A model generated the notes under the pieces. The model did not search any database, was not told the origin of the DNA, and was given only the letters and a program-made list of their open reading frames with translations. Positions 477-55,919 of a stretch of DNA of 64,000 nucleotides are shown here, one piece after another. Within the stretch, counting starts at the first letter, position 1; each line of letters begins with the position of its first letter. The DNA is taken from NCBI GenBank assembly GCA_949289005.1, contig CASEMQ010000034.1, forward strand, positions 59,964-123,963, written 5' to 3'. Origin of the DNA: an uncultured Lentisphaeraceae bacterium (GTDB lineage: Bacteria > Verrucomicrobiota > Kiritimatiellia > RFP12 > DVOR01). The position numbers were made by a program, and so were the translations under genes.

Positions 477-505
477 CCCCGTCGCGCCGCATTCCATTGC
501 TTGGC

Positions 506-670
506 CTGTCGATAACTTTTGCAAATCTGTTGAAAACCTGTTGAATACGGGCGGGGTCGGGGGGTGCCGCAAATCCCTCTTTTCAATCTATACAAGGGGT
601 CATTTTTCGAGACGCGCCGTATCTCCCCCCGAGACACGGCGCGTCTCGTCATGGGGTGCGCCGTGTCCCG
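506..670 (+). repeat. structured intergenic repeat element, copy 1 of 3 (plus orientation)
   Basis: Shares with copies at 30152-30338 (minus) and 49298-49486 (plus): TGTCGATAAC, GTTGAAAAC-YTGTTGA, distal TTTTCAATC, GGGGTC, and hairpin GAGACGCGCCGT/ACGGCGCGTCTC. Confidence 0.6.
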
Positions 671-830
671 AAACGCCCCGGCCGCGACGTTTTCGACGAC
701 CTCCCGCCATCCCTGTTCCCCTTGCGGTCATTTTGAGGTGTTTTTGGGGGGCGTTTTCTTGGGTGGCGCCGAAAAAAGGCTTGTCGGGAGGGGAGTGGGT
801 GGGTTATACTATGGGGCAAAGGGAGTGGCA

Positions 831-7643: not shown

Positions 7644-9556
7644 TTGGGCTTCTTTGGCAGTGTTGCGTCGTGGGGTTGATCGCGTTGGCGTGTTCGTTGG
7701 CGCTGACGCCCGTGGCGCGTGGGTTCATGCGGCGCATCGGCGCGATCGACAAGCCCGATCCGCGGCGCGTCAATCGCGTGCCCGTGCCGCGAGGCGGCGG
7801 GTTGGCGGTGGTGGTGGCCTTCTTCGTGGCGGTGGCGGTGGCGGTGCACGTCTGGCCGGGGGTATGGGCGCATTCGGCCTTTGCGGGCATCCTGCCGTGG
7901 TTCGTGCCGGCGGCCGTGCTGTTGGTGGCGGTGGGGTTCGTGGACGATCGTTTCGGCCTGCCGCCGGTGGTCAAGCTGGCGGCACAGATTGTCTCGGCGG
8001 CGATTTTGTGCTGGGGCGGGGCGCGGTTGACTTTCCCCGAGGCGTGGGGGGCGTGGGTGGCCGAGCCGTGGGTGTATGTGCCGCTCACGTTGGTGTGGTA
8101 TATCGGCGTGGTCAATGCCTTCAATCTGATCGACGGGTTGGACGGGCTCTCCTCCGGGCTGGCGATTTTGGGCACGGTGGGCATCGCGGGCGCCTTTCTC
8201 TTCGTGGAGCCCACGGCGCTGCCGGTGGCCTCGGCGGCTTTCGTGGGAGCCTTGCTGGGCTTTCTGCGTTACAATTACAACCCGGCGTCCGTCTTTCTGG
8301 GCGATTCGGGGAGTCTCTTCGTGGGGCTGACGGTGGCGACGCTGGCGTTGGTGTCGCGGCGGAGCGACGCGTTCCTGGTGTCGATGGGCATCCCCGTGTT
8401 GTGCCTGGGCGTGCCGTTGATCGACACGGGGCTGGCCGTCTTGCGGCGCACGTTGCGCTATATGTTGCGCCGGCTGGACGCGCCGCAGGGCACGGAGGGC
8501 GGCACCGGCGCGGTGATGACGGCCGATCGCGATCATGTCCACCATCGCTTCCTGGCGCTGGCGCACGGCAATCAGCGTCGCGCCGTCTGGGCGCTCTATG
8601 GGCTGGCCGCGGTGCTGATGGCGCTGGGGTTCGTGGCGTTGGCGGTTCGCGAGGCCAAGGCCACCGCCTTTATCATCGGCTTTTGCGCCTTCGCGGCGGT
8701 AATCGTCCGCGCGATGACGAACGTGGAGTTATGGGACGCGGGGCGGTTGCTCGCGCGCCCCGGCGCGCGTTGCGGCCGGCGCACCGCCACCGTGATCTTC
8801 TATGTGCTGAGCGACGTGGCGGTGATGGTCGCGCTCTATGTCGCGTTGCTGTGGCTGCTGTGGGATTTTCTCCCGGCGTATTCCCTGCGGAGGTTCCTCA
8901 ACTTCTTCTTGGCCTATTCGGTGCCGGTGGCGGTGGCGATGGTGTTGGTGCGGGCGTACACGCGCATTTGGGGGCGCAGCACGCGCAAGGATTCCTTTAT
9001 GGTCGTGGCCGCTGTGGCCGGCGGGTCGCTGGTCTCCCACCTGACGCTTGCCTATCTGGTGCCCGAATTGGCGGGTGCGATGGTGCGCTTCCATGTGCTT
9101 TGGGCGGCGTTGTTGCCGTTGCCGCTCTTGATGGCGCGCTTGGCGAAGACGGCGTTTTTGCAGTGGCTGGCCTTCGCCGAGAACCGCCGCCTGTGCCGCC
9201 GGTCGTTGCAGGATGCCTCCATCCCGCGCGTGTTGTTCTATGGCGCCGGGGTGAGCCTGCGCGCGACCATCACGCTCTACGAGGTCAACGTGACACGCAA
9301 CCACATGGCGCTTATCGGCGTGCTGGACGACAATCTGGGCCTCCACGGGCGCATCTTCCGCGACCTGCCCATCTTTGGCCCGCTGGAGGTCTTGGAGGAG
9401 GATCCCGACCTGTTCGCCCGTCTCCGCCCCACGCAAATCGTCGTCACCACGCCTGCAATCCCGCCCGCCCGCCTGGCGGAGATTCGCGCTTTCTGCGACG
9501 CGCATGGCATCGCCCTCTTGCGGAGCGTCATCGAGCAGTCGCCGCGGCCGCTCTGA
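7640..9556 (+). CDS. polyprenyl-phosphate HexNAc-1-phosphate transferase (WecA/MraY family) fused to C-terminal TM plus CoA-binding-like domain
   Basis: N-terminal ~350 aa carry the MraY/WecA motif VNAFNLIDGLDGL and multiple TM helices. C-terminal ~250 aa resemble the WbaP/WbpM-type CoA-binding domain (RVLFYGAG...IGVLDDN...PIFGP). ATGA overlap with DegT. Confidence 0.7.
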   Translation: MIGLLWQCCVVGLIALACSLALTPVARGFMRRIGAIDKPDPRRVNRVPVPRGGGLAVVVAFFVAVAVAVHVWPGVWAHSAFAGILPWFVPAAVLLVAVGFVDDRFGLPPVVKLAAQIVSAAILCWGGARLTFPEAWGAWVAEPWVYVPLTLVWYIGVVNAFNLIDGLDGLSSGLAILGTVGIAGAFLFVEPTALPVASAAFVGALLGFLRYNYNPASVFLGDSGSLFVGLTVATLALVSRRSDAFLVSMGIPVLCLGVPLIDTGLAVLRRTLRYMLRRLDAPQGTEGGTGAVMTADRDHVHHRFLALAHGNQRRAVWALYGLAAVLMALGFVALAVREAKATAFIIGFCAFAAVIVRAMTNVELWDAGRLLARPGARCGRRTATVIFYVLSDVAVMVALYVALLWLLWDFLPAYSLRRFLNFFLAYSVPVAVAMVLVRAYTRIWGRSTRKDSFMVVAAVAGGSLVSHLTLAYLVPELAGAMVRFHVLWAALLPLPLLMARLAKTAFLQWLAFAENRRLCRRSLQDASIPRVLFYGAGVSLRATITLYEVNVTRNHMALIGVLDDNLGLHGRIFRDLPIFGPLEVLEEDPDLFARLRPTQIVVTTPAIPPARLAEIRAFCDAHGIALLRSVIEQSPRPL

Positions 9557-29076: not shown

Positions 29077-30126
29077 ATGGGGCGTTGGATGGCGTTGGCA
29101 TGGGTGTTGGCGGCGGTGCCGTTGGGCGCGGCGGAGGTAACCTTCTCGGGGAAGACGGAGACGGCGATCGAGACGGCGGGGGCCTTTGCCTTCGGGGCGT
29201 TGGAGCGGCAGGGGTATGCCGCGGACGCGGCGTGGGAGGCGTGCGGCTTCATGGCGCAGGAAGGCGTCTGGGCGGACAAGACGTTGCTGGCGCCGGATGT
29301 GAATGTGCAGACGGCGGGGCGTTGGCGGCTGACGCTGACGGCGCGCGAGCCGGCACTCCTGCGTCGGCTGACGCTGGACGTGGCGATTTTCAACAGTTCG
29401 GGCAATACGCAAACCGCGGGCACGGTGCGCACGGCGCGCTTCCGCGCGGAGGCCGCCGGGCTGACGGCGGAGGCGGTGGCCGATTGCCGAGGCGCGGCTT
29501 CGCTCGCGGCGCAGGCCAACACGGTGACGCTGGACTTCGGCGGAATGGCGACCTTGGGCGCGGGCGAGACGCTGACGCTGACCTGCGAGCGGGTGGAGGA
29601 GCGCCTGGGGTGCTTCTTTGCCCTGCGGTCGATTGCGTGGGAGGAGACGCTTGAGGTGGAGACGGGCGCACGGGTGACTTGGCCGGAGACGCTCACGTCG
29701 GCGACGGTGCGTTTCGCGGGGGGCACGCTGGTCGTCCCGGAGGATACGACGGTGTGCCAAATCCGTGCCACGGCGGATTCCACGGGCGGGACGTTGGTGG
29801 TGGAGGGCGCGCTGTTGGGGGAGGATACGGGCGAGCCCTTTGTGCCGGCCTTCGCCCTGCCGCGCGGCGTGCGCGTGGAGGTGGCGCGGCGCGGTTGGCT
29901 GTTGATGGATGGGCGGCTCGCGGCCACCGTGACCACGACACAGGGCGCGCGCCTGGGCGCGGCCACGCCCTCGGGAACGCTGACGCTGGACGACCTGGAG
30001 CAGATCGGCGCGCCAATCGCCGTCCAAGGCAAGGTGGAATACTTCATGGGGCGCACCTTCCCGAAGACGGAGGACGCCGAACTGGTGCCGTGGGGGCGAC
30101 TTGGCTTTCGCCTCCTCCTGCGCTGA
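29077..30126 (+). CDS. secreted hypothetical protein
   Basis: Signal peptide MGRWMALAWVLAAVPLGAA. RBS GGGAGG. No recognisable domain. Confidence 0.5.
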   Translation: MGRWMALAWVLAAVPLGAAEVTFSGKTETAIETAGAFAFGALERQGYAADAAWEACGFMAQEGVWADKTLLAPDVNVQTAGRWRLTLTAREPALLRRLTLDVAIFNSSGNTQTAGTVRTARFRAEAAGLTAEAVADCRGAASLAAQANTVTLDFGGMATLGAGETLTLTCERVEERLGCFFALRSIAWEETLEVETGARVTWPETLTSATVRFAGGTLVVPEDTTVCQIRATADSTGGTLVVEGALLGEDTGEPFVPAFALPRGVRVEVARRGWLLMDGRLAATVTTTQGARLGAATPSGTLTLDDLEQIGAPIAVQGKVEYFMGRTFPKTEDAELVPWGRLGFRLLLR

Positions 30127-30151
30127 GCGCGTGCCCGGTCTCGGCGGACGG

Positions 30152-30338
30152 GTTGTCGATAACCTGTCGATAAGTCTCACGGCGTATCGCGGGGGGAGAT
30201 GCGCCGTGCCTCGCTTCGGGATACGGCGCATCTCGGGGAACGACCCCGCTCCCTGATTGAAAAAGAGGATTTGCGCCTCCTTCGGTCCCGATCCGTCTCA
30301 ACAGGTTTTCAACGGATTTCCGAAAGTTTTCAACAAGG
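30152..30338 (-). repeat. structured intergenic repeat element, copy 2 of 3 (minus orientation)
   Basis: Reverse complement aligns to copies 1 and 3. Hairpin GAGATGCGCCGT/ACGGCGCATCTC. TGTCGATAAC duplicated at one end. Confidence 0.6.
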
Positions 30339-30724
30339 CATTGCCGAACAAAACAAGGCGTCCCCGTACTTTCGCGTCGCGCACACAAAAAGCCGGTTTT
30401 GCCGGGGGTACGCTTCGTGGCGGATGGGCGGGTCGCCGGCGGAATCGCCGGTGCGCACCGCGCAAGGGGCTTTTGGGATGCGCCGGTCGCCCTTTTCCAA
30501 TCAGGGCGCGGGGCCATTTCCCGGGATGTGCCGCATCGCCCATCGAGACGCGCCGTGTCCCATCCCGGCACGTATCGGCAACCTCCGTCGATAACGTCGC
30601 GCGTTCCCGAGGCGTTCGCGTCCCTTGCCTTGGCGCTTGCGCGCACGGACACAACCAATCCGCAATCCCCGCGCCTCCCCGACATATTTTTTTTGCCTTT
30701 TCGCGTAAGTTTGCCCCGGCAAGG

Positions 30725-30765: not shown

Positions 30766-33700
30766 ATGAAGAGCGTTCTGTATGTTTGCGCCACTTTGCT
30801 GGGCGTGGTTCCTTTTGCGGCGGCGCAGACGGATTACGCGTCCATCTATACTTGGGAAATCGTTGATGGCGAGGCCCATATTTTGGATGTCAAAACAACG
30901 CTTTCCGGGGAAGTCGCGATTCCTGCCGAGTTGGATGGCTATCCTGTGACATCCGTTGGTGTCGCGGAACTTCCTGACGGACTCGCGGCCAAGGCGGGGC
31001 GCGATGGGTTCAATGGGCAGACCCGCATCACGGCGGTAACGATTCCACCGAGCGTCAAAACAATCGGCGACGACGCCTTCCGTGGGTGCACCGCGTTGGA
31101 GCGTGTGGCGCTCTCCTCCCCTGTGACGATCGGGGATTTTGCCTTCCGCGATTGCACTTCACTGCGGGAATTGGACGCGACGTATTTTCCGACGACGACC
31201 GTCTACTCCGGGTCTGAAGCCAATACGGCCTTTTATGGATGCGCCAATCTGCGCTTTGTGGGGCCGGAGAGCAAGGTCGTCGACGGGTCATTGGTCGATT
31301 GCCAGACGCTGGTTCGTGCGGCTGCCGGGACGGAGGAGGTCACGGTCCCGGAGGAAATCACGATGTTGGGGTATGCGGCTTTCGGCGGTTCGTCGCAACT
31401 GAAAACCGTCCACTTTATGGGACCGCCCCCATCGTGGTTTTACTGGAACGCGCCGGCTGACAATTGTGTCTTTTCCCCTTCCATCACCACGGTCACTTAT
31501 CGTTCCAAGTATGCCGCGGAGTGGGAGTCTTTTCTTGACGGGAAGAAAACCTGGACCGTTCAGTGCGCGGTGCTCAATGGCAATTCCTATCCCGTCCGCA
31601 CCATGACCTTCAACGTTGAGCCTTATGGCACGTGGGCACTCCAAGGGAACGCCAAGTATCTGACGTTTGAGGGTGGCACGGTGACGGGGCTTTCCAACAA
31701 GTCCGTTTCGGGCGAATTGGCGATTCCTGCGGAATATGACGGGCAGACGATCACGGGCATTTATCAGGACGCGTTCACGGACTGCACGCGCATCACGTCG
31801 GTGACGGTGCCGGGGACGGTTTCGACGATTGGCTTTCGCACGTTTGTGCGGATGACGGGCATGAAGGAAATCGTCTTCCAGGAGGGCGTGCAGGAAATCA
31901 CGTGGGGGGCGTTCTCGGATTGCACGGCGCTCAACCGCATCGTCATCCCGGCCAGTTGCACACGTATCGACGAGATCGCTTTCGACACGTGCGGGAAAAT
32001 CACGTTCGAGGTCGCCTCGGACAACCCCACGTATACCGCGGTCGATGGCGCCTTGTTGTCCAAAGACGGCCGGACGTTGGTTTTTGCCCCGGGTAGCGTC
32101 ACAAGCTACACGATTCCGGAAACGGTGACGGATGTTGCCGCGTTCGCGTTCGGAACGGATCAGCCGATTGCTTCGATCGACGTGCCGAGTTCCGTGTCCT
32201 ATTTGCCATCGACATGCTGTTGGTATAACACGACCGTCCGAAAGATTACCTTTCACGGCAATCCGCCGGAGGGCGGCATACCGGATGTCAATGTATGGAT
32301 CGAGGGGAACCCGTGGCCAACCACGGTGACGGGCTATTACCCGAAGTCGCGGGAGACGGCGTGGAAGGCGGCGATGGCGGCGGACGACGACGGGGACGAC
32401 GCCAAGTGGCATGGGCTGAAGATGGCGTCTTACCAGGACATCACGGGGCCGGCGCAGTATCTGACGTATGACGGCGGCACGGTCTCTGGCATTTCCAACA
32501 AGGGTGCCTCGGGCGCGCTGGTGATTCCGGACGAGATCGCGGACACGCCAATCTGGGCGATTTCCCAGGACGCGTTCACGGATTGCACGCGGATCACGTC
32601 GGTGACGGTGCCGGGGACGGTTTCGACGATCGGGAACCGTACGTTTGTGCGGATGACGGGCCTGAAGGAGATCGTCTTCCAAGAGGGCGTGCAGGAAATC
32701 ATGTGGGGGGCGTTCTCGGACTGCACGGCGCTCAACCGCATTGTCATCCCCGCCAGTTGCACAAGTATCGATGAGAGCGCCTTCGACACGTGCTACGAGA
32801 TTGCCTTTGAGGTTTCGCCGGACAACCCGGTCTACAAGTCGGTGGATGGCGCGTTGCTGACGAAGGACGGCACGAAGCTGATTTACGCGCCCGGGAACGT
32901 CACGGCCTACACAATCCCGGACACGGTGACGGAAATCGCGCGGTATGCTTTTGGCGCGGGGCAATCGCTGGGGGCGGTGAAGTTGGCCTCGGTGACGGTC
33001 CCGAAATCGGTGGAGACGATTCCGGAGAGTGCCTTCGCGTTCGGGTTCGGCGCGGTGAACGTGGACGCGGGCAACCCGAACTTCTCGTCCGAGAACGGCG
33101 TGCTTTACGACAAGGACAAGACGGCGTTGCTCCATGTCCCCACGACGGCCACGTCGTTCACGGTGCCGGATTCGGTGACGCGCATCGGGATGGGGGCGCT
33201 TTCCGAATGTGCGCTCACGTCTGTCGTTTTCTCGGACATGGGCACGTTGCGAGAAATCGGCGACCAGGCGTTCTGGGGCAGCAAACTCCGGACGCTGACG
33301 CTTCCCGAAGGCGTGGAACGCCTTGGATACGAAATCGCCGGCTGTTGCGAGAGCCTCTCGACGATTGTCTTCCCGGAGACGTTGACGGACTTGGGCGGGC
33401 AAGGTTTCACGGATTGTGATGCCTTGCGGCGGGTGGAGTTTCATGGCCTGCCGCCGTCGGAGGGAAGCACAGGCATCGTGCTCTATCATAACGCGGCGAA
33501 GGGCTATTATCCCGCAAGCTACGCGCCTGCCTGGGAGGCCGTGCTCAACGCGGACGGCACGTGGGGCGAAGGTATGCCGGAATATGGCCTTTACGCGCTC
33601 GCGATGGCCGTCTATGACGATGCGCCGACGGGGACGATGGCGCAACTGGAGTTCGCGGAGAATGGCGAGGGGGTGACGCTTGTCAAGGTGCCGGCCGGGT

Positions 33701-36300
33701 TTTCCGGGGCGTTGACGATCCCCGCGACGTGGCGTGTGGCGCGAGGCGAGGGTGCGTACGAGCGTTTGCCCGTGACGGCGATCGCGCCGGGGGCGTTCGC
33801 GGGGTGCACGCGTTTGACCTCGGTGGTCATCCCAGGCTCGGTGAGGACGGTGGGAGACGGCGTCTTCGCCGGGTGTTCCGCCCTGACGGCGGTCACCTTC
33901 CAAGAGGGGGTCGGGCGGCTGGAGGGGGTGGTCTTCGCGGACTGCGCGAAGTTGGCGAAGGTGAAGATGCCCGCGACGCTGACGGCCATCGCGCGCACGC
34001 CTTTCCTGGAGGCTTGCCCGGAAATCGCCTTCGAGGTGGCGTCGGACAATCCGGTCTATCAATCGAGCGGCGGCGCGTTGCTGGACGCGGGGTGCACGCG
34101 GTTGCTGGTCGGCCCGGGCAACGTGGCGACGTATGTGGTGCCGGCGGGGGTGACGGCAATCGCGGACTACGCGTTCGCGGCGGGGCAGTCGTTGGGAACC
34201 GTCAAACTCGCGACGGTCACGGTGCCGGCGGGCGTGACGGCGATTGGCGACTATGCCTTTGCCTTCGGCATCGACAAGGTGAACGTGGCGGAGGGGGACC
34301 CGGCCTATGCCTCCGTGGACGGCGCGCTTTTCGACAAGACCAAGCGCACCTTGCTGCACGTGCCTTGCACGCCGACGACCTTTGCCATCCCGGAGGGCGT
34401 GGAGACAATCGCCGCCGGCGCGTTCTCCGCATGCGCGGTCACGGCGATAACCATCCCGGAGGGTGTGACGGACATCGGCGGCGACGCGTTTGTCGGGTGC
34501 ACGCGCCTGACGGCGCTGACGTTGCCGGCGTCGTTGCGCGCGTGGGGCGGCGACGGCGGCGTGTCGTTGGATACATGCACGGCACTTGCCACCATCACCT
34601 TCACCGGACAGCCCGATACGTTGGAGATCGACGGGGCCACGTGGCCGGCAAAGGCGAAAGGGCGCTATCCCGCGCTCTGGACGGGCTATTGGGAGGCCGC
34701 GCTGGACGAGGCGGGCACCTTCCATGGCCTGCCGATGGTCGCCTATGCGCCGACTGGCGCGGCGGGTTCGCTGACCTATGACCCCACGAGCACCGACCCC
34801 GTCGTGACGGGCATCGCCACCTCGGCCGGCGGTGCGTTGGAGATCCCGCAGGGCGTGACGGCCATCGCGCCGGGCGCGCTTGACGGCGCCTCGCGGCTGA
34901 CCGCCGTGACGGTGCCGGGTTCCGTCGCCACCATTCAGGCCGGCACGTTCACGAACCTGGCCGGGCTTGCGACGGTGACGTTGCAAGAGGGCGTGACGCG
35001 GATTGAGGCGGGGGCGTTCGAGGGTTGCGCCAAGCTGACAAAGGTGGTCATCCCCGCTTCCTGCACGGCCATCGATCCCCGCGCTTTCGCGAATTGCCCG
35101 GACATCGCCATCGAGGTGGCCGAGGGCAACCCGGTCTACGCCTCTGTGGATGGCGCGTTGCTGAGCAAGGATGGCACGGTGCTGTATCTTGCGCCCGGCA
35201 ACGTCACGGCCTATGCCATCCCGGGAACGGTCACGACAATCGCCTCGGGGGCCTTTGGCGCGGGGCAGGCGCAGGGAAGCAAGAAGTTGGCCTCGGTGAC
35301 AATCCCGGCCTCGGTCGTGAAAATCGCGGAGGGCGCGTTCGCGGGCTTTGGCAAGGTGACGGTGGCGGATGGGAACCCGGCCTATGCCTCCACGTCGGAC
35401 GGTGCGTTGTTCGACAAGGCGCGCACGACCCTGTTCCATGTGCCCAACACGTTGTCCGGGGCTTACACGGTGCCCGAGGGCGTCGCGACGATCGCGGCGG
35501 AGGCGTTCCGCGATTGCACGGCGCTCACCGCCGTGACCTTCCCCACCACGCTCGCAGCCATTGGGCGCGATGCGTTCGCCGGTTGCACGAAGGTTGGCAC
35601 GCTCACTTTCCTGGGGCTTCCGCCCGCGACGGTGGGCGAGGGCGCCTTTGGCACGTGCACAGCGGGCGCGTATCCCAACGCCTATTGGGAGGAATGGGTG
35701 GCAGCCATGGGGGCGGAGGGCGTTTGGCACGGCTTGGCCATGTCGACCACGCCCTTCACCACCATCGTCCGTCGCGTCGGCAGCGGCACGGTGAACGACG
35801 GCGCCACGAACATCACGACCTTCCCGCGGACGATGAGCTATCAGCCCGGGCAGACGGTCACGCTCACGGCCACGCCCGCCAAAGGCTACGTCTTCCTGGG
35901 GTGGTCGGGCGCCGGCATCGAGACGCACGGCGCGGAGGCGACCTTCCCCGCCGGCGGCGCGCCGGAGATCACGGCCCATTTCGTCACGCAAGCCGTGGCC
36001 GATTCGATGGAGGCGGTCGGCGTCGGCGGCATGGATTCCTCCTTGGAGGAGGCGCTCGCCAATGGCGATGTGTTCACCAAGGAGCAGATCCAGGAGATGG
36101 CCTTCGGCGCGCCGCTCTTCGAGGTAAAGGACGGCGAGGCGACCATCGGGCTCACCTTGCGCACCGCCGAGGCGCTTGACGGCGACTGGGAAGCGCTCAA
36201 GCCGAGCGATGTCGTCGTCGGCGCGGACGGGACCATCTCCATCAAGGTCTCGGTCGAGGGGAAGACGCGCTTCTATAAGTTCGTCGTCCCGGAAAAGTGA
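30766..36300 (+). CDS. giant secreted cell-surface protein with BspA-type leucine-rich repeats and C-terminal Listeria-Bacteroides (Flg_new) repeat domain
   Basis: 1844 aa with signal peptide. Reiterated modules IPxSVxxIGxxAFxxCxxLxxV (LRR_5/BspA type) in 4-5 ~265-aa super-repeats. C-terminal GYVFLGWSG motif. Confidence 0.8.
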   Translation: MKSVLYVCATLLGVVPFAAAQTDYASIYTWEIVDGEAHILDVKTTLSGEVAIPAELDGYPVTSVGVAELPDGLAAKAGRDGFNGQTRITAVTIPPSVKTIGDDAFRGCTALERVALSSPVTIGDFAFRDCTSLRELDATYFPTTTVYSGSEANTAFYGCANLRFVGPESKVVDGSLVDCQTLVRAAAGTEEVTVPEEITMLGYAAFGGSSQLKTVHFMGPPPSWFYWNAPADNCVFSPSITTVTYRSKYAAEWESFLDGKKTWTVQCAVLNGNSYPVRTMTFNVEPYGTWALQGNAKYLTFEGGTVTGLSNKSVSGELAIPAEYDGQTITGIYQDAFTDCTRITSVTVPGTVSTIGFRTFVRMTGMKEIVFQEGVQEITWGAFSDCTALNRIVIPASCTRIDEIAFDTCGKITFEVASDNPTYTAVDGALLSKDGRTLVFAPGSVTSYTIPETVTDVAAFAFGTDQPIASIDVPSSVSYLPSTCCWYNTTVRKITFHGNPPEGGIPDVNVWIEGNPWPTTVTGYYPKSRETAWKAAMAADDDGDDAKWHGLKMASYQDITGPAQYLTYDGGTVSGISNKGASGALVIPDEIADTPIWAISQDAFTDCTRITSVTVPGTVSTIGNRTFVRMTGLKEIVFQEGVQEIMWGAFSDCTALNRIVIPASCTSIDESAFDTCYEIAFEVSPDNPVYKSVDGALLTKDGTKLIYAPGNVTAYTIPDTVTEIARYAFGAGQSLGAVKLASVTVPKSVETIPESAFAFGFGAVNVDAGNPNFSSENGVLYDKDKTALLHVPTTATSFTVPDSVTRIGMGALSECALTSVVFSDMGTLREIGDQAFWGSKLRTLTLPEGVERLGYEIAGCCESLSTIVFPETLTDLGGQGFTDCDALRRVEFHGLPPSEGSTGIVLYHNAAKGYYPASYAPAWEAVLNADGTWGEGMPEYGLYALAMAVYDDAPTGTMAQLEFAENGEGVTLVKVPAGFSGALTIPATWRVARGEGAYERLPVTAIAPGAFAGCTRLTSVVIPGSVRTVGDGVFAGCSALTAVTFQEGVGRLEGVVFADCAKLAKVKMPATLTAIARTPFLEACPEIAFEVASDNPVYQSSGGALLDAGCTRLLVGPGNVATYVVPAGVTAIADYAFAAGQSLGTVKLATVTVPAGVTAIGDYAFAFGIDKVNVAEGDPAYASVDGALFDKTKRTLLHVPCTPTTFAIPEGVETIAAGAFSACAVTAITIPEGVTDIGGDAFVGCTRLTALTLPASLRAWGGDGGVSLDTCTALATITFTGQPDTLEIDGATWPAKAKGRYPALWTGYWEAALDEAGTFHGLPMVAYAPTGAAGSLTYDPTSTDPVVTGIATSAGGALEIPQGVTAIAPGALDGASRLTAVTVPGSVATIQAGTFTNLAGLATVTLQEGVTRIEAGAFEGCAKLTKVVIPASCTAIDPRAFANCPDIAIEVAEGNPVYASVDGALLSKDGTVLYLAPGNVTAYAIPGTVTTIASGAFGAGQAQGSKKLASVTIPASVVKIAEGAFAGFGKVTVADGNPAYASTSDGALFDKARTTLFHVPNTLSGAYTVPEGVATIAAEAFRDCTALTAVTFPTTLAAIGRDAFAGCTKVGTLTFLGLPPATVGEGAFGTCTAGAYPNAYWEEWVAAMGAEGVWHGLAMSTTPFTTIVRRVGSGTVNDGATNITTFPRTMSYQPGQTVTLTATPAKGYVFLGWSGAGIETHGAEATFPAGGAPEITAHFVTQAVADSMEAVGVGGMDSSLEEALANGDVFTKEQIQEMAFGAPLFEVKDGEATIGLTLRTAEALDGDWEALKPSDVVVGADGTISIKVSVEGKTRFYKFVVPEK
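31765..31974 (+). repeat. intragenic near-identical direct repeat A (~95% identical to 32568-32777)
   Basis: e.g. GCGTTCACGGA(C/T)TGCACGCG(C/G)ATCACGTCGGTGACGGTGCCGGGGACGGTTTCGACGAT shared; offset 803 bp. Confidence 0.8.
32568..32777 (+). repeat. intragenic near-identical direct repeat B (partner of 31765-31974)
   Basis: Same ~210-bp segment encoding the AFTDCTRITSVTVPGTVSTIG...ALNRIVIPASCT module. Confidence 0.8.
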
Positions 36301-47402: not shown

Positions 47403-48638
47403 ATGCCACAGCCATCGTTCGATGTCGTTTTTCACCTCATTGGCGGGCAGGCGCTGCCCAACGCCTTCGCCATCCACGCCATCCCAGCCGAGCATCACAT
47501 CCTCTTCGTTACCGACAAAACCGAAGGGATCGCCAAGCGTCTCCAAAACGCCTTCGCCGACAAACGGTTGGAAGCGATCCCCGTGGAGCCCTACAACATC
47601 CCCGGCCTCCAAGCCATCTTCACGGAGCAACTCCACCGCTTCGCGGGGCAACGCATGGCCGCCAACATCACCGGCGCCACCAAGCCCATGGCCCTCATGT
47701 TGGCGCACGTCGCGGCACAGATCGGGCGAATTCCCCTCTACTATATGGAGACCTCGCCCGACCCGCTAAAAATCGAAATCTGGCCCAACGCGGACAAATG
47801 GACGGCCTCCACCTCCTTCCTCGAAACGGCCATCAAGACCGTTCGCGAATACATCGCCCTCCACTCCGACGCCTTGTTCGAGCCCGGGGAGAAAACCTGC
47901 TCCGCCCAGACCATCGCCTTGGCACGCACCATCGCGGCTTGCCCGTCCATCCGCAAATCCCTCTCCTTCAAACTCGGAGGTCGTAAAAACAGCCCCGGTT
48001 TTACGGATTGCCTCCCGAACGCCAAATACGACTTCTACGAAAGTCAGTTCGACGCCACGCTCGATGACTTCGACCGCGACTTGGTCAAATATACTTGGGA
48101 CACCAAGGCGCGAAACGCCTGCCGCGCCGGCATCCAAGCCATGATTGAAACCGACGGCAAAGAGGCCACGTGCCGCTTCCTAGGCGGTATCTGGCTGGAA
48201 ATCTTCGCCTTCTCCGAATTGCAAGGGCGCGACGGTTTCTTTGACGTGCAACAAAGCGCACACGTGAAGTTCAGGCAAAACGAATACGACCGGCAAGAGT
48301 TTGACGTCGCAACCTGCACCAAACACCACGTCTACATCGTGGAATGCAAAAGCGGGCGCGTGACGAGCGAGCAAATCGCCGACCTCACCGCGAACGTTAC
48401 GCAATACGCCGGCACCTTCGGGCGCGGCGTCCTCCTGACGTCAAGTGAATGCATGGGGCACACTAGCGACCGCGAAGCCTACGAAAATCTTAAGACGCGT
48501 ATCCGCGAAAGCGACAACATCATGTTGGTGGAACTGCCCAAAAAATTGCCTCCCAACTTCTTGGCCAACGCACTCCGCTCCTGGAAAGAAGGCGTCTACA
48601 CCCCGCCGGCCCAGGGCTTCCCTCCCAAGAGACGTTGA
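47403..48638 (+). CDS. CARF-domain protein fused to PD-(D/E)xK nuclease-like domain (Card1/Can2-like cyclic-oligoadenylate-activated nuclease candidate)
   Basis: N-terminal Rossmann-like strand VVFHLIGGQALPN and CARF signature NITGATKPM. C-terminal E266...D301...E314-C-K316 restriction-endonuclease-like motif. RBS AAGGAG. Sits 275 bp upstream of a CRISPR array. Confidence 0.55.
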   Translation: MPQPSFDVVFHLIGGQALPNAFAIHAIPAEHHILFVTDKTEGIAKRLQNAFADKRLEAIPVEPYNIPGLQAIFTEQLHRFAGQRMAANITGATKPMALMLAHVAAQIGRIPLYYMETSPDPLKIEIWPNADKWTASTSFLETAIKTVREYIALHSDALFEPGEKTCSAQTIALARTIAACPSIRKSLSFKLGGRKNSPGFTDCLPNAKYDFYESQFDATLDDFDRDLVKYTWDTKARNACRAGIQAMIETDGKEATCRFLGGIWLEIFAFSELQGRDGFFDVQQSAHVKFRQNEYDRQEFDVATCTKHHVYIVECKSGRVTSEQIADLTANVTQYAGTFGRGVLLTSSECMGHTSDREAYENLKTRIRESDNIMLVELPKKLPPNFLANALRSWKEGVYTPPAQGFPPKRR

Positions 48639-48705: not shown

Positions 48706-48913
48706 GTGCCCACGCGACAAAATGCGGAGGGAGCCCAAACACCTCCAAAAACCGCCTCTCCCTCCACATTTCGAAACTCGTTCGCCTACAATGTCTTGTA
48801 AATAAAATCCATTGCGATGTCCCTCCTCCCCGTCCCCAAAAATAGCCTCCAAAACCGTCTCCCTCCGCATCCGCCCAATAAAGCGTTTGACCACAACATC
48901 AAACTATGCTACA
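48706..48913 (+). other. putative CRISPR leader (AT-enriched, promoter-like TACAAT / TTGTAAATAAAAT)
   Basis: Lies between the terminator and the first repeat, on the side opposite the degenerate terminal repeat. Locally AT-rich in a GC-rich window. Confidence 0.4.
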
Positions 48914-49176
48914 GTCACACCATCGTTCAAGGCCGAAAGGCTATTGCGACAGTTCCTTGGTGAAGAAGTCCATAATGGAATCCTTTCTGTCACACCATCG
49001 TTCAAGGCCGAAAGGCTATTGCGACTGGCGATGAGTGAGATTCATCCAGCAATTGTTTCCGGTCACACCATCGTTCAAGGCCGAAAGGCTATTGCGACTA
49101 ATGAATGCCCCGATACCAACAAGGACGATTCCGAGTCCAGTCACACCATCGTTCAAGGCCGAAAGGCGCTTGCGAT
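48914..49176 (+). CRISPR. CRISPR array: 4 repeats of 37 bp (GTCACACCATCGTTCAAGGCCGAAAGGCTATTGCGAC), 3 spacers (38, 36, 41 bp), last repeat degenerate
   Basis: Three identical repeats at 48914, 48989 and 49062 plus a degenerate fourth at 49140 (GCGCTTGCGAT end). Unique AT-richer spacers. The repeat 3' end ATTGCGAC resembles the ATTGAAAC crRNA 5' handle. Confidence 0.85.
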
Positions 49177-49297
49177 GGTCACGGATGTGGCGTAGGTTGG
49201 GCGGGGGCGTTGGGGTCTTGTCCGTGGCTGTTGTGGGGTGGGGGAGTGGGCATGGGCGAGTGGCACCGGCCATGCCTGCCGATGACGGTTGCGTGGG

Positions 49298-49486
49298 TTG
49301 TCGATAACCGGGGCCGGTGCTGTTGAAAACTTGTTGAAAGTCTGCCTGCCTCGGGGAGGGCCAAAACCGTTTTTTCAATCAGGGAGCGGGGTCGTTTTTC
49401 GAGACACGCCGTATCTCGCATCGAGGCACGGCGTGTCTTGCCTCGGGATACGGCGTGTTCCGGAATGGTTTGGCCTGTCAATAACC
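49298..49486 (+). repeat. structured intergenic repeat element, copy 3 of 3 (plus orientation)
   Basis: Hairpin GAGACACGCCGT/ACGGCGTGTCTT with G-T wobble. Flanked by TTGTCGATAACC (start) and TGTCAATAACC (end). Confidence 0.6.
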
Positions 49487-49607
49487 CGGCTTTTGCGTGT
49501 CCGCCTTCTTCCCGCTTTCTTTTCTTCCTCCCGCCTGCGCAACTCCATCGTGGACGCTTCAAATACATCACGACGGCCGGTGCGAGGTTGCGGGCGGGGA
49601 GGCGGTT

Positions 49608-53981: not shown

Positions 53982-55919
53982 TCAGGGGGTGGCGGATGGC
54001 GTGAGGCGAATGAGGAAGCCTCCGCCGGGGGCGCAGGGGAGGGTGAGGGTGTCTTGGGCGGTGACGGTGCGGGTCTGGAGGATGTAGTCGGTGGGGACGG
54101 CGTCTGAGACGGGGCTGTCGCGGAGGATGGTGGCGGTGTAGGTGACGCCGGGGACGAGGTCGGCGAGGGGAATGGCGAGGTCTCGGGCTTGGGGGCCGAC
54201 GATGGCGGCAATCCAGTGCGCGTCGCCTTTGCGGCGGCGGACGAGGAGGAGGGCGTCGGGGGCGGAGGCGGGGTCGCAGCGGGTGTCGTCCCACGTGAGG
54301 GGGAGGTCGGCGAGGAAGCGGGTATAGGCGGGTTCGCGGGCGTAGGCGGAGGGACTGTCGCAGAACACGCGGAAGTTGGTGTCCAGGAGCATGAGGAGCG
54401 CGGCTTGGCGGCAGCGGGTGCCCATGGACATGGGGCGGGAGACGTTGGGGCGAAAGGTCTGGCGAGTGGCGTTGCGCATGGCGCCGGGGGTGTAGTCGGC
54501 GGGGCCGGCGAGGAGGCGGGTGAAGGGGATGCGCAGGTCGTTGGTGATGAAGTCGAGGTCGTTGCCGGCCCATTTGGCGGTCTCCAGGCCGAGGATGCCT
54601 TCGTAGGTGAGGACGTTGGGGAAGGTGCGCGAGAGGCCGGTGGGCTTGTGGATGCCGTGGTAGTCGAGAACCATGCGGTGCTTGGCCGCAAGCGCGGCGG
54701 TCTCGCGGAGGAAGTGGGCGATGGCGGCATCGTCGCGGTCGAAGTGGTCGATCTTGAAGCCTTTGACGCCCATCCGGGCGTAGTGGGCGAAAAGCGCGTC
54801 CTGGCGGCCATAGAGCGCCCCCCAGTCGGCCCAGAGGACGAGGCCGACGTTCCTTTTTTTGGCGTACGCCAGGAGCGCGGGGAGGTCAAGCCCGGGCGCC
54901 ACTTTCAAGAGGTCGTCGCCTTGGCTCCAGCCGGAGTCGATGAGGGCGTAGGGGAGGCCGAGGTCCGCGGCGAAGTCAATGTAGGCCCGGTAGGTCTCGG
55001 TGTTTATGCCGGGCTTGAAGGGGGTGTCGTCGAGCCCGAAGGCGTTCCATCACTCCCAGGCGCACGCGCCGGGCTTGACCCAAGAGAAGTCGCCCTGGGC
55101 CGGCTCGGAGAGTGCCATGACCAGGTCATTGCCATAGAGGCCGGCAGCGTTGTCGGCCAGCATGAAGATGCGCCAAGGCAGGGCGCGGGGGCCGGGCGTG
55201 CGCACAAGCCATGGCTCGCGGGCGACGACAAGGCGCTGGCGGCCGGTGGCCTCCACTTTGGCCGGGAAACGCGCCATGGCCGCGACGAGCCGCCCAGGGG
55301 GCTCAATCGGGCGGCGTAGGTTCAGCCCGGGATAGTCGCGCACCTCGGCCTCCGCAAGGGCGAGTGCCACGCCATCGCCCAACAGCGTGACGGGAAGGTA
55401 GATCAAGTGCTTAGGGTCGATTTTCCCAAGGGCGGAGCGGTTGTGGGTGGACTCGAAGTCGCCTTGGAAGTGGTCGCCGCGGTATCCCGCCGGATTGTAG
55501 CCATAGAGCAGCTCGGGCTCGCCCGCGGGGGCGAAGGTGAACGTCTCGTCGCGAATTTCCGCCTCGCCCGCCGCCACAATCGTCCAACGATAGGCCACGC
55601 CTTGGTCGGTGGACAGGATGGTGAGCGACAGGTCGCCAAAGTCCGCCGTCGCGCAGTTGGCTTTCAGGTCGATGTGTGCGCGCACGGTGTGGAACGGCAC
55701 CTCGGCGGAGAAGTCGTGCGCAAAGGTCGTCACCCGCGGCGTGCCGCCGAGCCTTGCCCCTGCCACCTCTAGGCCGATGGGCGCAGGCGCCAAGATTGGC
55801 TTGCCCCGGCGGGAGACGGCAAAAAGCAATCGTTCGCCTTCCCGCGAGACGGTGAGCGTATTGGTCCCATCGGGGGAGGTGACGGACATTAGCATGGCAA
55901 GCGCGGCCTCGGGCAACAT
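53982..55919 (-). pseudogene. glycoside hydrolase family 97 alpha-glucosidase gene interrupted by one in-frame TGA (minus strand 55052-55050)
   Basis: ORFs 55919-55050 and 54908-53982 are in the same frame. Read-through gives ...SWVKPGACAWE*WNAFGLDD..., and the stop sits where GH97 proteins carry a conserved Trp-rich motif. Confidence 0.7.

Follow-up and report, generated by a model that had tools for sequence, protein, structure and literature searches.

An uncatalogued family of intergenic palindromic repeats in an uncultured Lentisphaeraceae bacterium: small RNA genes or BIME- and MITE-like elements?

Near the start of the stretch of DNA analyzed here (the window, 64,000 nucleotides from an uncultured Lentisphaeraceae bacterium, with a G+C content of 66% and housekeeping genes), a structured sequence lies between a phosphoribosyltransferase gene and an ftsB/DivIC-like gene. 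A sequence-only reading, made without database searches, described it as one of three copies of an intergenic element, named small RNAs and MITEs as the candidate classes, and argued from G-U wobbles that the element is transcribed from a particular strand. Two questions are raised by this locus: whether the copies form a genuine family, and whether such a family is better understood as a set of small RNA genes or as an interspersed repeat.

Copies, distribution and architecture of the family

The proposed three-copy family is genuine: its members are multi-copy, non-coding and intergenic, they lie where they had been placed, and their hairpin is maintained. A covariance model built from the three (R1) recovers each of them with an E-value of about 1e-50, within limits slightly wider than those first drawn: c1 at 500..706 (+; 212.7 bits, E 8e-59), c2 at 30145..30342 (-; 197.7 bits) and c3 at 49292..49492 (+; 184.7 bits). 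Over an alignment of about 200 nt, their pairwise identity is 63-70% and the mean column identity 76-78%, and the 16-mer GTTGAAAACYTGTTGA occurs 3 times in the window vs. 0.02 expected. Each copy recurs in other strains, c1 in all of the strain contigs L010-L015, c2 in L150-L153 and c3 in L016-L025. A fourth, degenerate copy, c4 (30443..30614, +; covariance model score 31.5-37.8 bits, alignment A4), had been overlooked; it stands head to head with c2, lacks the 5' module and has a decayed hairpin. Many strain variants of the same species, found by exact-protein look-ups, all carry c1, c2, c3, and c4.

The absence of additional copies had been proposed as an argument against the family; besides c4, a fifth full copy and 11 further copies, seen as translations, were found. 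The fifth, c5 (L167:9276-9488; 103 bits with R1 and 178 bits with model R2), is on a contig other than that of the window but from the same sample series, and was reached via one spurious protein. When the open sense frame of c2 was translated and compared with an exhaustive protein library, 13 short "proteins" turned out to be translations of the element, one of them c2's own ortholog, one c5, and 11 further copies in public metagenomes. These 13 translations share the consensus ..VDNF[RA]KSVENLL..FQS[GI]xGV[VI]FRD[AT]PYL..RH[GA][AV]S..RR.., with no indels across the core and the same fixed spacing of blocks. The count therefore stands at 5 copies in about 98 kb, with the c5 contig assumed to belong to the same species, plus at least 11 more as translations. 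A coding function for the element was considered and rejected, as the reading frame varies among copies (frameshifts) and some frames contain in-frame stops. Predicted ORFs of 76-261 a.a. span element copies (L150:3775-4488, -; P0207-P0218; P0220), and at least 13 clusters of bogus proteins in public collections are no more than this non-coding repeat in translation. Some metagenome contigs also start or end in or beside an element copy (the start of L013 and the ends of L152, L151, and L153), as would be expected if assemblies break at the variable spacer or at a repeat.

The family is real, larger than three copies and uncatalogued, and its distribution is narrow as far as it has been sampled. 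A search with both models detected no copy in some 60 kb of sequence from relatives, which comprised contigs with an IDH 91-93% identical and contigs with a homolog, 58-65% identical, of the gene neighbouring c2; the gene order of these relatives differs from that of the window, so they offer no true empty site for comparison. Extension by 6.6 kb past the end of the window and 7.8 kb before its start gave no further copies. A pattern scan of GTDB species-representative genomes returned 5 matches, in unrelated phyla and with the wrong spacing, that were taken as chance; in JGI metagenomes it returned 0 and then 2 chance matches apparently in coding sequence, and in viral contigs 0 and then unrelated ones. 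A blastn search of c2 against plasmids and phages returned nothing. Many IMG/VR contigs of about 5-6 kb (L031, L047, L050, and others) contain GTTGAAAACYTGTTGA twice, 63 nt apart; these pairs look unrelated to the element and are probably a repeat inside those small viral genomes. The earlier statement that the element is not a known RNA family is borne out by an Rfam scan of the whole window, which gave no match at gathering thresholds or at permissive E-values (the best sub-threshold score was 23.9 bits vs. 47 needed, E = 0.56). The proteins encoded beside the copies assign the window to an uncultured Kiritimatiellia bacterium, the best isocitrate dehydrogenase matches being 93% identical and carrying the label of Kiritimatiellae MAGs. 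Because a homolog of the c2-adjacent gene is labelled Candidatus Spyradenecus faecavium, the sources are taken to be gut samples.

The element is built, in order, from direct TGTYGAWAAC motifs, a spacer of 34-35 nt, the block TTTTCAATC-N7-GGGGTC, three tandem 22-bp units and a terminal motif. This module order had been described correctly, but the spacer length had been put at 30-60 nt, and the presence of TGTYGAWAAC at both ends of the element had gone unnoticed. On the 5' side, three direct copies of the motif stand at offsets 0, 21-22, and 32-33; in c1, this 5' module spans 507..548 (+), with motif starts at 507, 528, and 539, the last two being 11 bp apart. The tandem form of the motif is found in the window only inside elements, save for one chance match with 1 mismatch. 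The G+C-rich 35-nt spacer of c1 (545..579, +) is hypervariable between strains, and the central block TTTTCAATC-N7-GGGGTC (580..601, + in c1) is invariant and of fixed spacing in c1-c3 and c5, the fixed distances extending through TTTTCAATC-N7-GGGGTC-N7-GAGA. At the 3' end of c1, a motif search locates TGTYGAWAAC in inverted orientation (GTTTTCGACGA) at 689..699 (+); in c2 it is an inverted tandem (30154-30174), in c5 it is inverted as well, and in c3 (49476-49485) and c4 it is direct. The terminal repeat is just 11-13 bp long and imperfect. Judging from motif orientation, the inverted 3' motif would usually, in most copies, act like a terminal inverted repeat. An informal comparison with the motifs of sigma-54 and ECF promoters, IHF, the DnaA box, parS, attC, and dif gave no convincing match.

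Palindromic units, covariation and strand

The hairpin region consists of three tandem 22-bp units, each of which is a 17-bp near-palindrome, GAGAYRCG-S-CGYRTCTC; in c3, the 22-nt period is picked up by TRF. The main hairpin of c1 (608..648, +) has a 13-bp stem with arms at 608-620 and 636-648, corresponding to units U1 (609-625) and U2 (631-647), and the hairpins of c2 and c3 lie at 30196-30234 and 49400-49440, respectively. The hairpin described in the sequence-only reading is U1:U2; a third arm located 3' of it, U3 (653..669, + in c1), which can pair with U2 instead of U1, was overlooked. Since the units are palindromic, neighbouring units are complementary to one another, and a long G+C-rich hairpin as well as an alternative hairpin can be formed. 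In c1, the U2:U3 pairing has 13 Watson-Crick and 3 G-T pairs of 17; across copies, Watson-Crick pairs number 12-16 of 17 in U1:U2 and 10-16 of 17 in U2:U3. The orientation of a unit is set only by its central base. In c3, U3 has the opposite central base and is thus oriented like U2, so that it pairs with U1 and not with U2.

Covariation was counted over 33 pairs on 8 distinct variants. Two of the 33 are compensatory, both in the main stem, and the other 31 show no compensatory change, 20 of them never varying at all. The arm sequences given earlier, the compensatory changes at positions 5-6 (CG/CG, TG/CA, and CA/TG) and the terminal G-T pair in copy 3 were all correct. A further pairing proposed between GTTGAAAA and TTTTCAAT is present and includes the G-T pair, but none of the 8 variants shows any change in it, and it carries no covariation evidence. 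In 15 copies decoded from codons, stem position 6 is G-C in 8, A-T in 4, G-T in 1, and A-C in 2; the 12 of 15 that are Watson-Crick agree with a maintained stem (Fisher p = 0.09). The centre of the unit, in the middle of the stem, is necessarily a C-C mismatch in 7 of the 15 decoded copies. No fold common to copies or strain variants was found in the spacer or the 5' half. A small helix, AGGGAGC/GTTYYYC, was examined and rejected: it rests on runs of G-U, and its N7 block exists in two unrelated versions with no matching change opposite. One palindromic stem is supported, and no other structure.

The same pairs bear on the claim that G-U wobbles reveal a transcribed RNA and its strand, and here the claim fails, as A-C mismatches are at least as common. 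In the full 17-nt U1:U2 duplex, there are 8 A-C or C-A mismatches, each a G-U on the opposite strand, vs. 3 G-U, and one of these A-C mismatches is common to all copies. A looser tally across helices yields at best 5 to 1 (p = 0.11), and this was before c5 added two opposite cases. Fold z-scores of the sense strand range from -2.1 to -4.3, and those of the antisense strand are similar. G-T wobbles form in single-stranded DNA hairpins as well. On account of this balance of G-U and A-C, of fold scores that are alike on both strands, and of the G-T pairs that single-stranded DNA hairpins accommodate, the strand is not assignable. The wobble pairs of c4 were also considered as evidence for an RNA strand and rejected; c4 decays at the neutral rate.

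Genomic setting, strain divergence and rival explanations

The contexts reported for the three copies (an ftsB-like/DivIC gene, a convergent gene, and a CRISPR array with rpsO) are as described. The phosphoribosyltransferase gene stops at 476, about 24-30 nt before c1 starts, and c1 ends about 75 nt before the promoter-like site (781-810) of the ftsB/DivIC-like gene. The convergent gene 29077-30126 has its stop at 30126, and the 3' end of c2 is 19 nt beyond it. A 4-repeat CRISPR array, whose last repeat is degenerate, precedes c3 by about 115 nt, and the promoter-like site of rpsO follows c3 at a distance of about 100 nt; the end of c5 is 15 nt past a stop codon. All four loci (c1, c2, c3, and c5) are located between co-directional transcription units, to which c1 and c3 are in sense and c2 and c5 in antisense orientation, and the promoter-like site of the next unit, where one was found by scan or by eye, is situated beyond the element. 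Consensus scans, which do find the promoters of the neighbours, detected no sigma-70-like promoter at or before the 5' end of the element. No hairpin-plus-U terminator was found at its 3' end, and clear ones are present elsewhere in the genome. A terminator role is speculative, because ordinary hairpin-plus-U terminators occur elsewhere and the big hairpin of the element is without a U tract.

Several features adjoin these loci. A tRNA-Phe/Glu/Phe operon with a canonical terminator is next to c5 (L167:8753-8986, -, and 9000-9080); just upstream of its -10-like element TGCTATACT stands TTGTCGAT, which resembles the terminal motif of the element and the -35 hexamer (TTGTCG) of the ftsB-like gene promoter. 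The CRISPR mini-array before c3 (48916-49177, +) has four copies of a 37-nt repeat, GTCACACCATCGTTCAAGGCCGAAAGGCTATTGCGAC, the last one degenerate, and an A+T-rich leader with a promoter-like site at 48887-48915. It is directly 3' of a gene for a Card1-type CARF nuclease (47403-48638), and no cas genes were seen in the window. A GH97 glycoside hydrolase gene (about 53982-55919, -) is a single ORF of 579-583 a.a. in some strains (L016-L025 and L157-L166 were compared); in others, it is split at differing points, e.g., 205+431, 362+263, and 274+309, which suggests strain-specific frameshifts, pseudogenisation, or assembly errors. Downstream of c4 (30766-36300, +) is the gene for a large leucine-rich-repeat surface protein with internal repeats of about 800 bp, and the length of this protein is 1844 a.a. 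in the window vs. 2243 a.a. in another strain (L150:4499-11230).

The intergenic region of c2 and c4 was compared between the window and contig L150. Differences amount to 1.8% in the core of c2 and to 9% in the intergenic DNA beside it (p = 0.0017); the decayed c4 shows 9.9%, like neutral DNA, and the c2 spacer (30264-30297) shows 23.5% (p = 4e-5 vs. the core). At c1, 5 of the 35 nt of the spacer differ vs. 0 of 296 nt for the rest of the sequence from 500 to the next gene (p = 1e-5). Overall, the spacers differ by 14-24% between strains and the scaffold by 0-2%. The intact c2 core is constrained or homogenised, c2 being the locus with enough divergence to test, and in c1 as in c2 the spacer is a hot spot. 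A 17-nt patch just past the stop upstream of c1 (482-498) has 6 strain differences. The clustering of differences in the spacers and in this patch could possibly come from a mutation hot spot, from conversion tracts, or from diversifying selection. When the spacers were compared with other sequences of the window, only isolated complementary 11-13-mers and no convincing target were found.

Several explanations were weighed against this evidence. As sibling sRNA genes, each copy would give rise to a structured RNA of about 150-200 nt on the strand named in the sequence-only reading, with the spacer as target-pairing region. The conserved module order and spacing, the hairpin with its two compensatory pairs, the sense-strand fold z-scores and the constraint on the c2 core between strains, while its spacer varies fast, speak for this explanation. 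It is nevertheless unlikely, given that sequence predictions place no sigma-70-like promoter at or before the 5' module and no hairpin-plus-U at the 3' end, that the antisense folds score about equally, and that A-C mismatches exceed G-U in the main duplex (8 to 3). Moreover, about half of the decoded copies have the C-C mismatch in mid-stem, the 5' half has no fold common to copies or strain variants, Rfam gives no match, and the spacers lack a convincing complementary target in the window. Far less probable, and the least so of the explanations considered, is a cis-regulatory leader or attenuator of the downstream gene (ftsB-like, rpsO, or the LRR protein) that switches between arm1:arm2 and arm2:arm3. 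Promoter-like sites lie downstream, between element and gene (from the scan; those of rpsO, the LRR gene, and the tRNAs by eye), c2 and c5 are instead turned towards a convergent gene's 3' end, the genes downstream are unrelated in function, and the third arm of c3 pairs with arm 1, not arm 2. All this is set against the alternative pairings available in every copy and the orientation of c1, c3, and c4 towards the next gene.

A duplex-DNA module bound by protein, which would insulate or organise adjacent transcription units, is about as doubtful as the sRNA genes. Under this proposal, a response-regulator-like or transposase-like protein would recognise the TGTYGA hexamers, which are phased at 11 and 21-22 bp, and a dimeric protein would use the three 17-bp palindromes, which are phased at 22 bp, as its operators. 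Such a module would account for the helical phasing, with motifs 11 bp and palindromic units 22 bp apart, for near-palindromic units whose central base is free (C or G), as in dimer operators, for the fixed spacing between blocks, and for function in either orientation. However, positions 5-6 covary between units, the left half of U1 with the right half of U2, and not within one unit, so that intrastrand pairing fits better than independent operators; nor is a candidate binding protein encoded beside the copies, and the motif never stands alone at other promoters in the window. The constant block spacing and the constrained core would, in themselves, equally fit a structured RNA or a protein-binding module. 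A step lower in probability is a new structured non-coding class, in which a rigid scaffold presents a fast-evolving segment of about 20-30 nt, the spacer. This estimate includes its more particular versions: the copies could act as guide-like RNAs, as decoy RNAs, or as single-stranded-DNA substrates for a hypothetical hairpin-recognising recombinase, or they could be a new hairpin-dependent mobile element unrelated to REP/RAYT. The pattern of a scaffold plus a hypervariable spacer would deserve experiment if it proved genome-wide, and the spacer is the one feature worth follow-up.

Resemblance to known repeat families

On balance, the family seems best explained as a lineage-restricted, non-coding interspersed mosaic repeat of about 200 bp, resembling BIME/REP clusters and MITEs though its formal membership of either class is not established, and not as free-standing sRNA genes. 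Of the two classes originally named, small RNA or MITE, the latter thus fits better. The copies would have spread in the lineage by transposition or recombination; as no target duplication, empty site, or transposase was found, mobility is something that we only infer. They may persist where they are tolerated or useful, that is, past the end of one transcription unit and before the next promoter, in either orientation. When co-transcribed with the upstream unit, the hairpin would probably form an orientation-independent 3'-end stem-loop, which could be a barrier to read-through or to exonucleases, and the repeated motifs are probably recognition sites for a protein such as a transposase, a recombinase, or a nucleoid protein. 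There are hardly any descriptions of interspersed palindromic repeats from Kiritimatiellia or from the PVC group more widely, and a defined family with a covariance model could help annotation, serve as a strain-typing marker, and flag likely operon boundaries.

The element was compared with the BIMEs and REP clusters of Enterobacteria, Pseudomonas, and Stenotrophomonas (PMC2817692, PMC3733652), with MITEs such as Correia/NEMIS, ERIC/IRU, RUP, and bcr1 (PMC3184786, PMC10969869, PMC2229807), and with sibling sRNA families. Like the last of these, it exists as several paralogous copies that have diverged in sequence but are similar in length and share a conserved hairpin; unlike them, it is without a promoter or terminator of its own, occurs in mixed orientation, and has its structure limited to one palindromic stem. 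The likeness to MITEs is broader. They too are non-coding, intergenic, and 100-250 bp long, with a potential for long secondary structure, and they have decayed copies beside intact ones. MITEs are often co-transcribed with neighbouring genes, as the element may be, and have terminal inverted repeats, which the inverted 3' motif of c1, c2, and c5 resembles. On the other hand, the terminal repeat of the element, at about 11-13 bp, is imperfect and has direct orientation in c3 and c4. The flanks of c1, c2, c3, and c5 show, at the inferred ends, no direct repeat of 2-9 bp that would represent a target-site duplication. Every strain contig carries every copy, with no insertion polymorphism or empty site among them, and no transposase was found in the window or fetched flanks and no parent IS was identified.

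In comparison with REP sequences, the differences concern size, tags, and the associated gene. The units of the element are 17 bp long at a 22-bp period (REP palindromes are 20-40 bp), and the element has an extra 5' module of about 110 bp as well as terminal inverted motifs. A hallmark of REPs is a tag, GTAG or CGTC, that stays unpaired at one end of the palindrome (PMC3733652); GTAG/CTAC is in no copy, and CGTC is only in c1 and c2, at non-equivalent positions. REP/BIME systems also have a cognate gene for a RAYT, an IS200/IS605-like tyrosine transposase, flanked by repeats (PMC2817692), and no RAYT gene was found in the window or fetched contigs. The arrangement of the palindromes and the places in which they lie, by contrast, are closely alike. 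BIMEs are defined by regularly spaced alternating palindromes (PMC2817692), and regularly spaced, alternating short imperfect palindromes are what the element contains; in both, short palindromic units have complementary neighbours that fold into larger hairpins. Both are mosaics with conserved linker motifs and are specific to one species or lineage. REP/BIME repeats, with more than 100 copies per genome, are extragenic and mostly downstream of coding regions, a location matched at four element loci, and the element, like BIME/REP, follows coding regions closely, lies between genes of the same direction, and occurs in both orientations. Di Nocera et al. describe for REPs the same positional bias as that of the element loci (PMC3733652). 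Set beside these systems, the family is a bacterial repeat of an ordinary kind, and what is unusual is its host.
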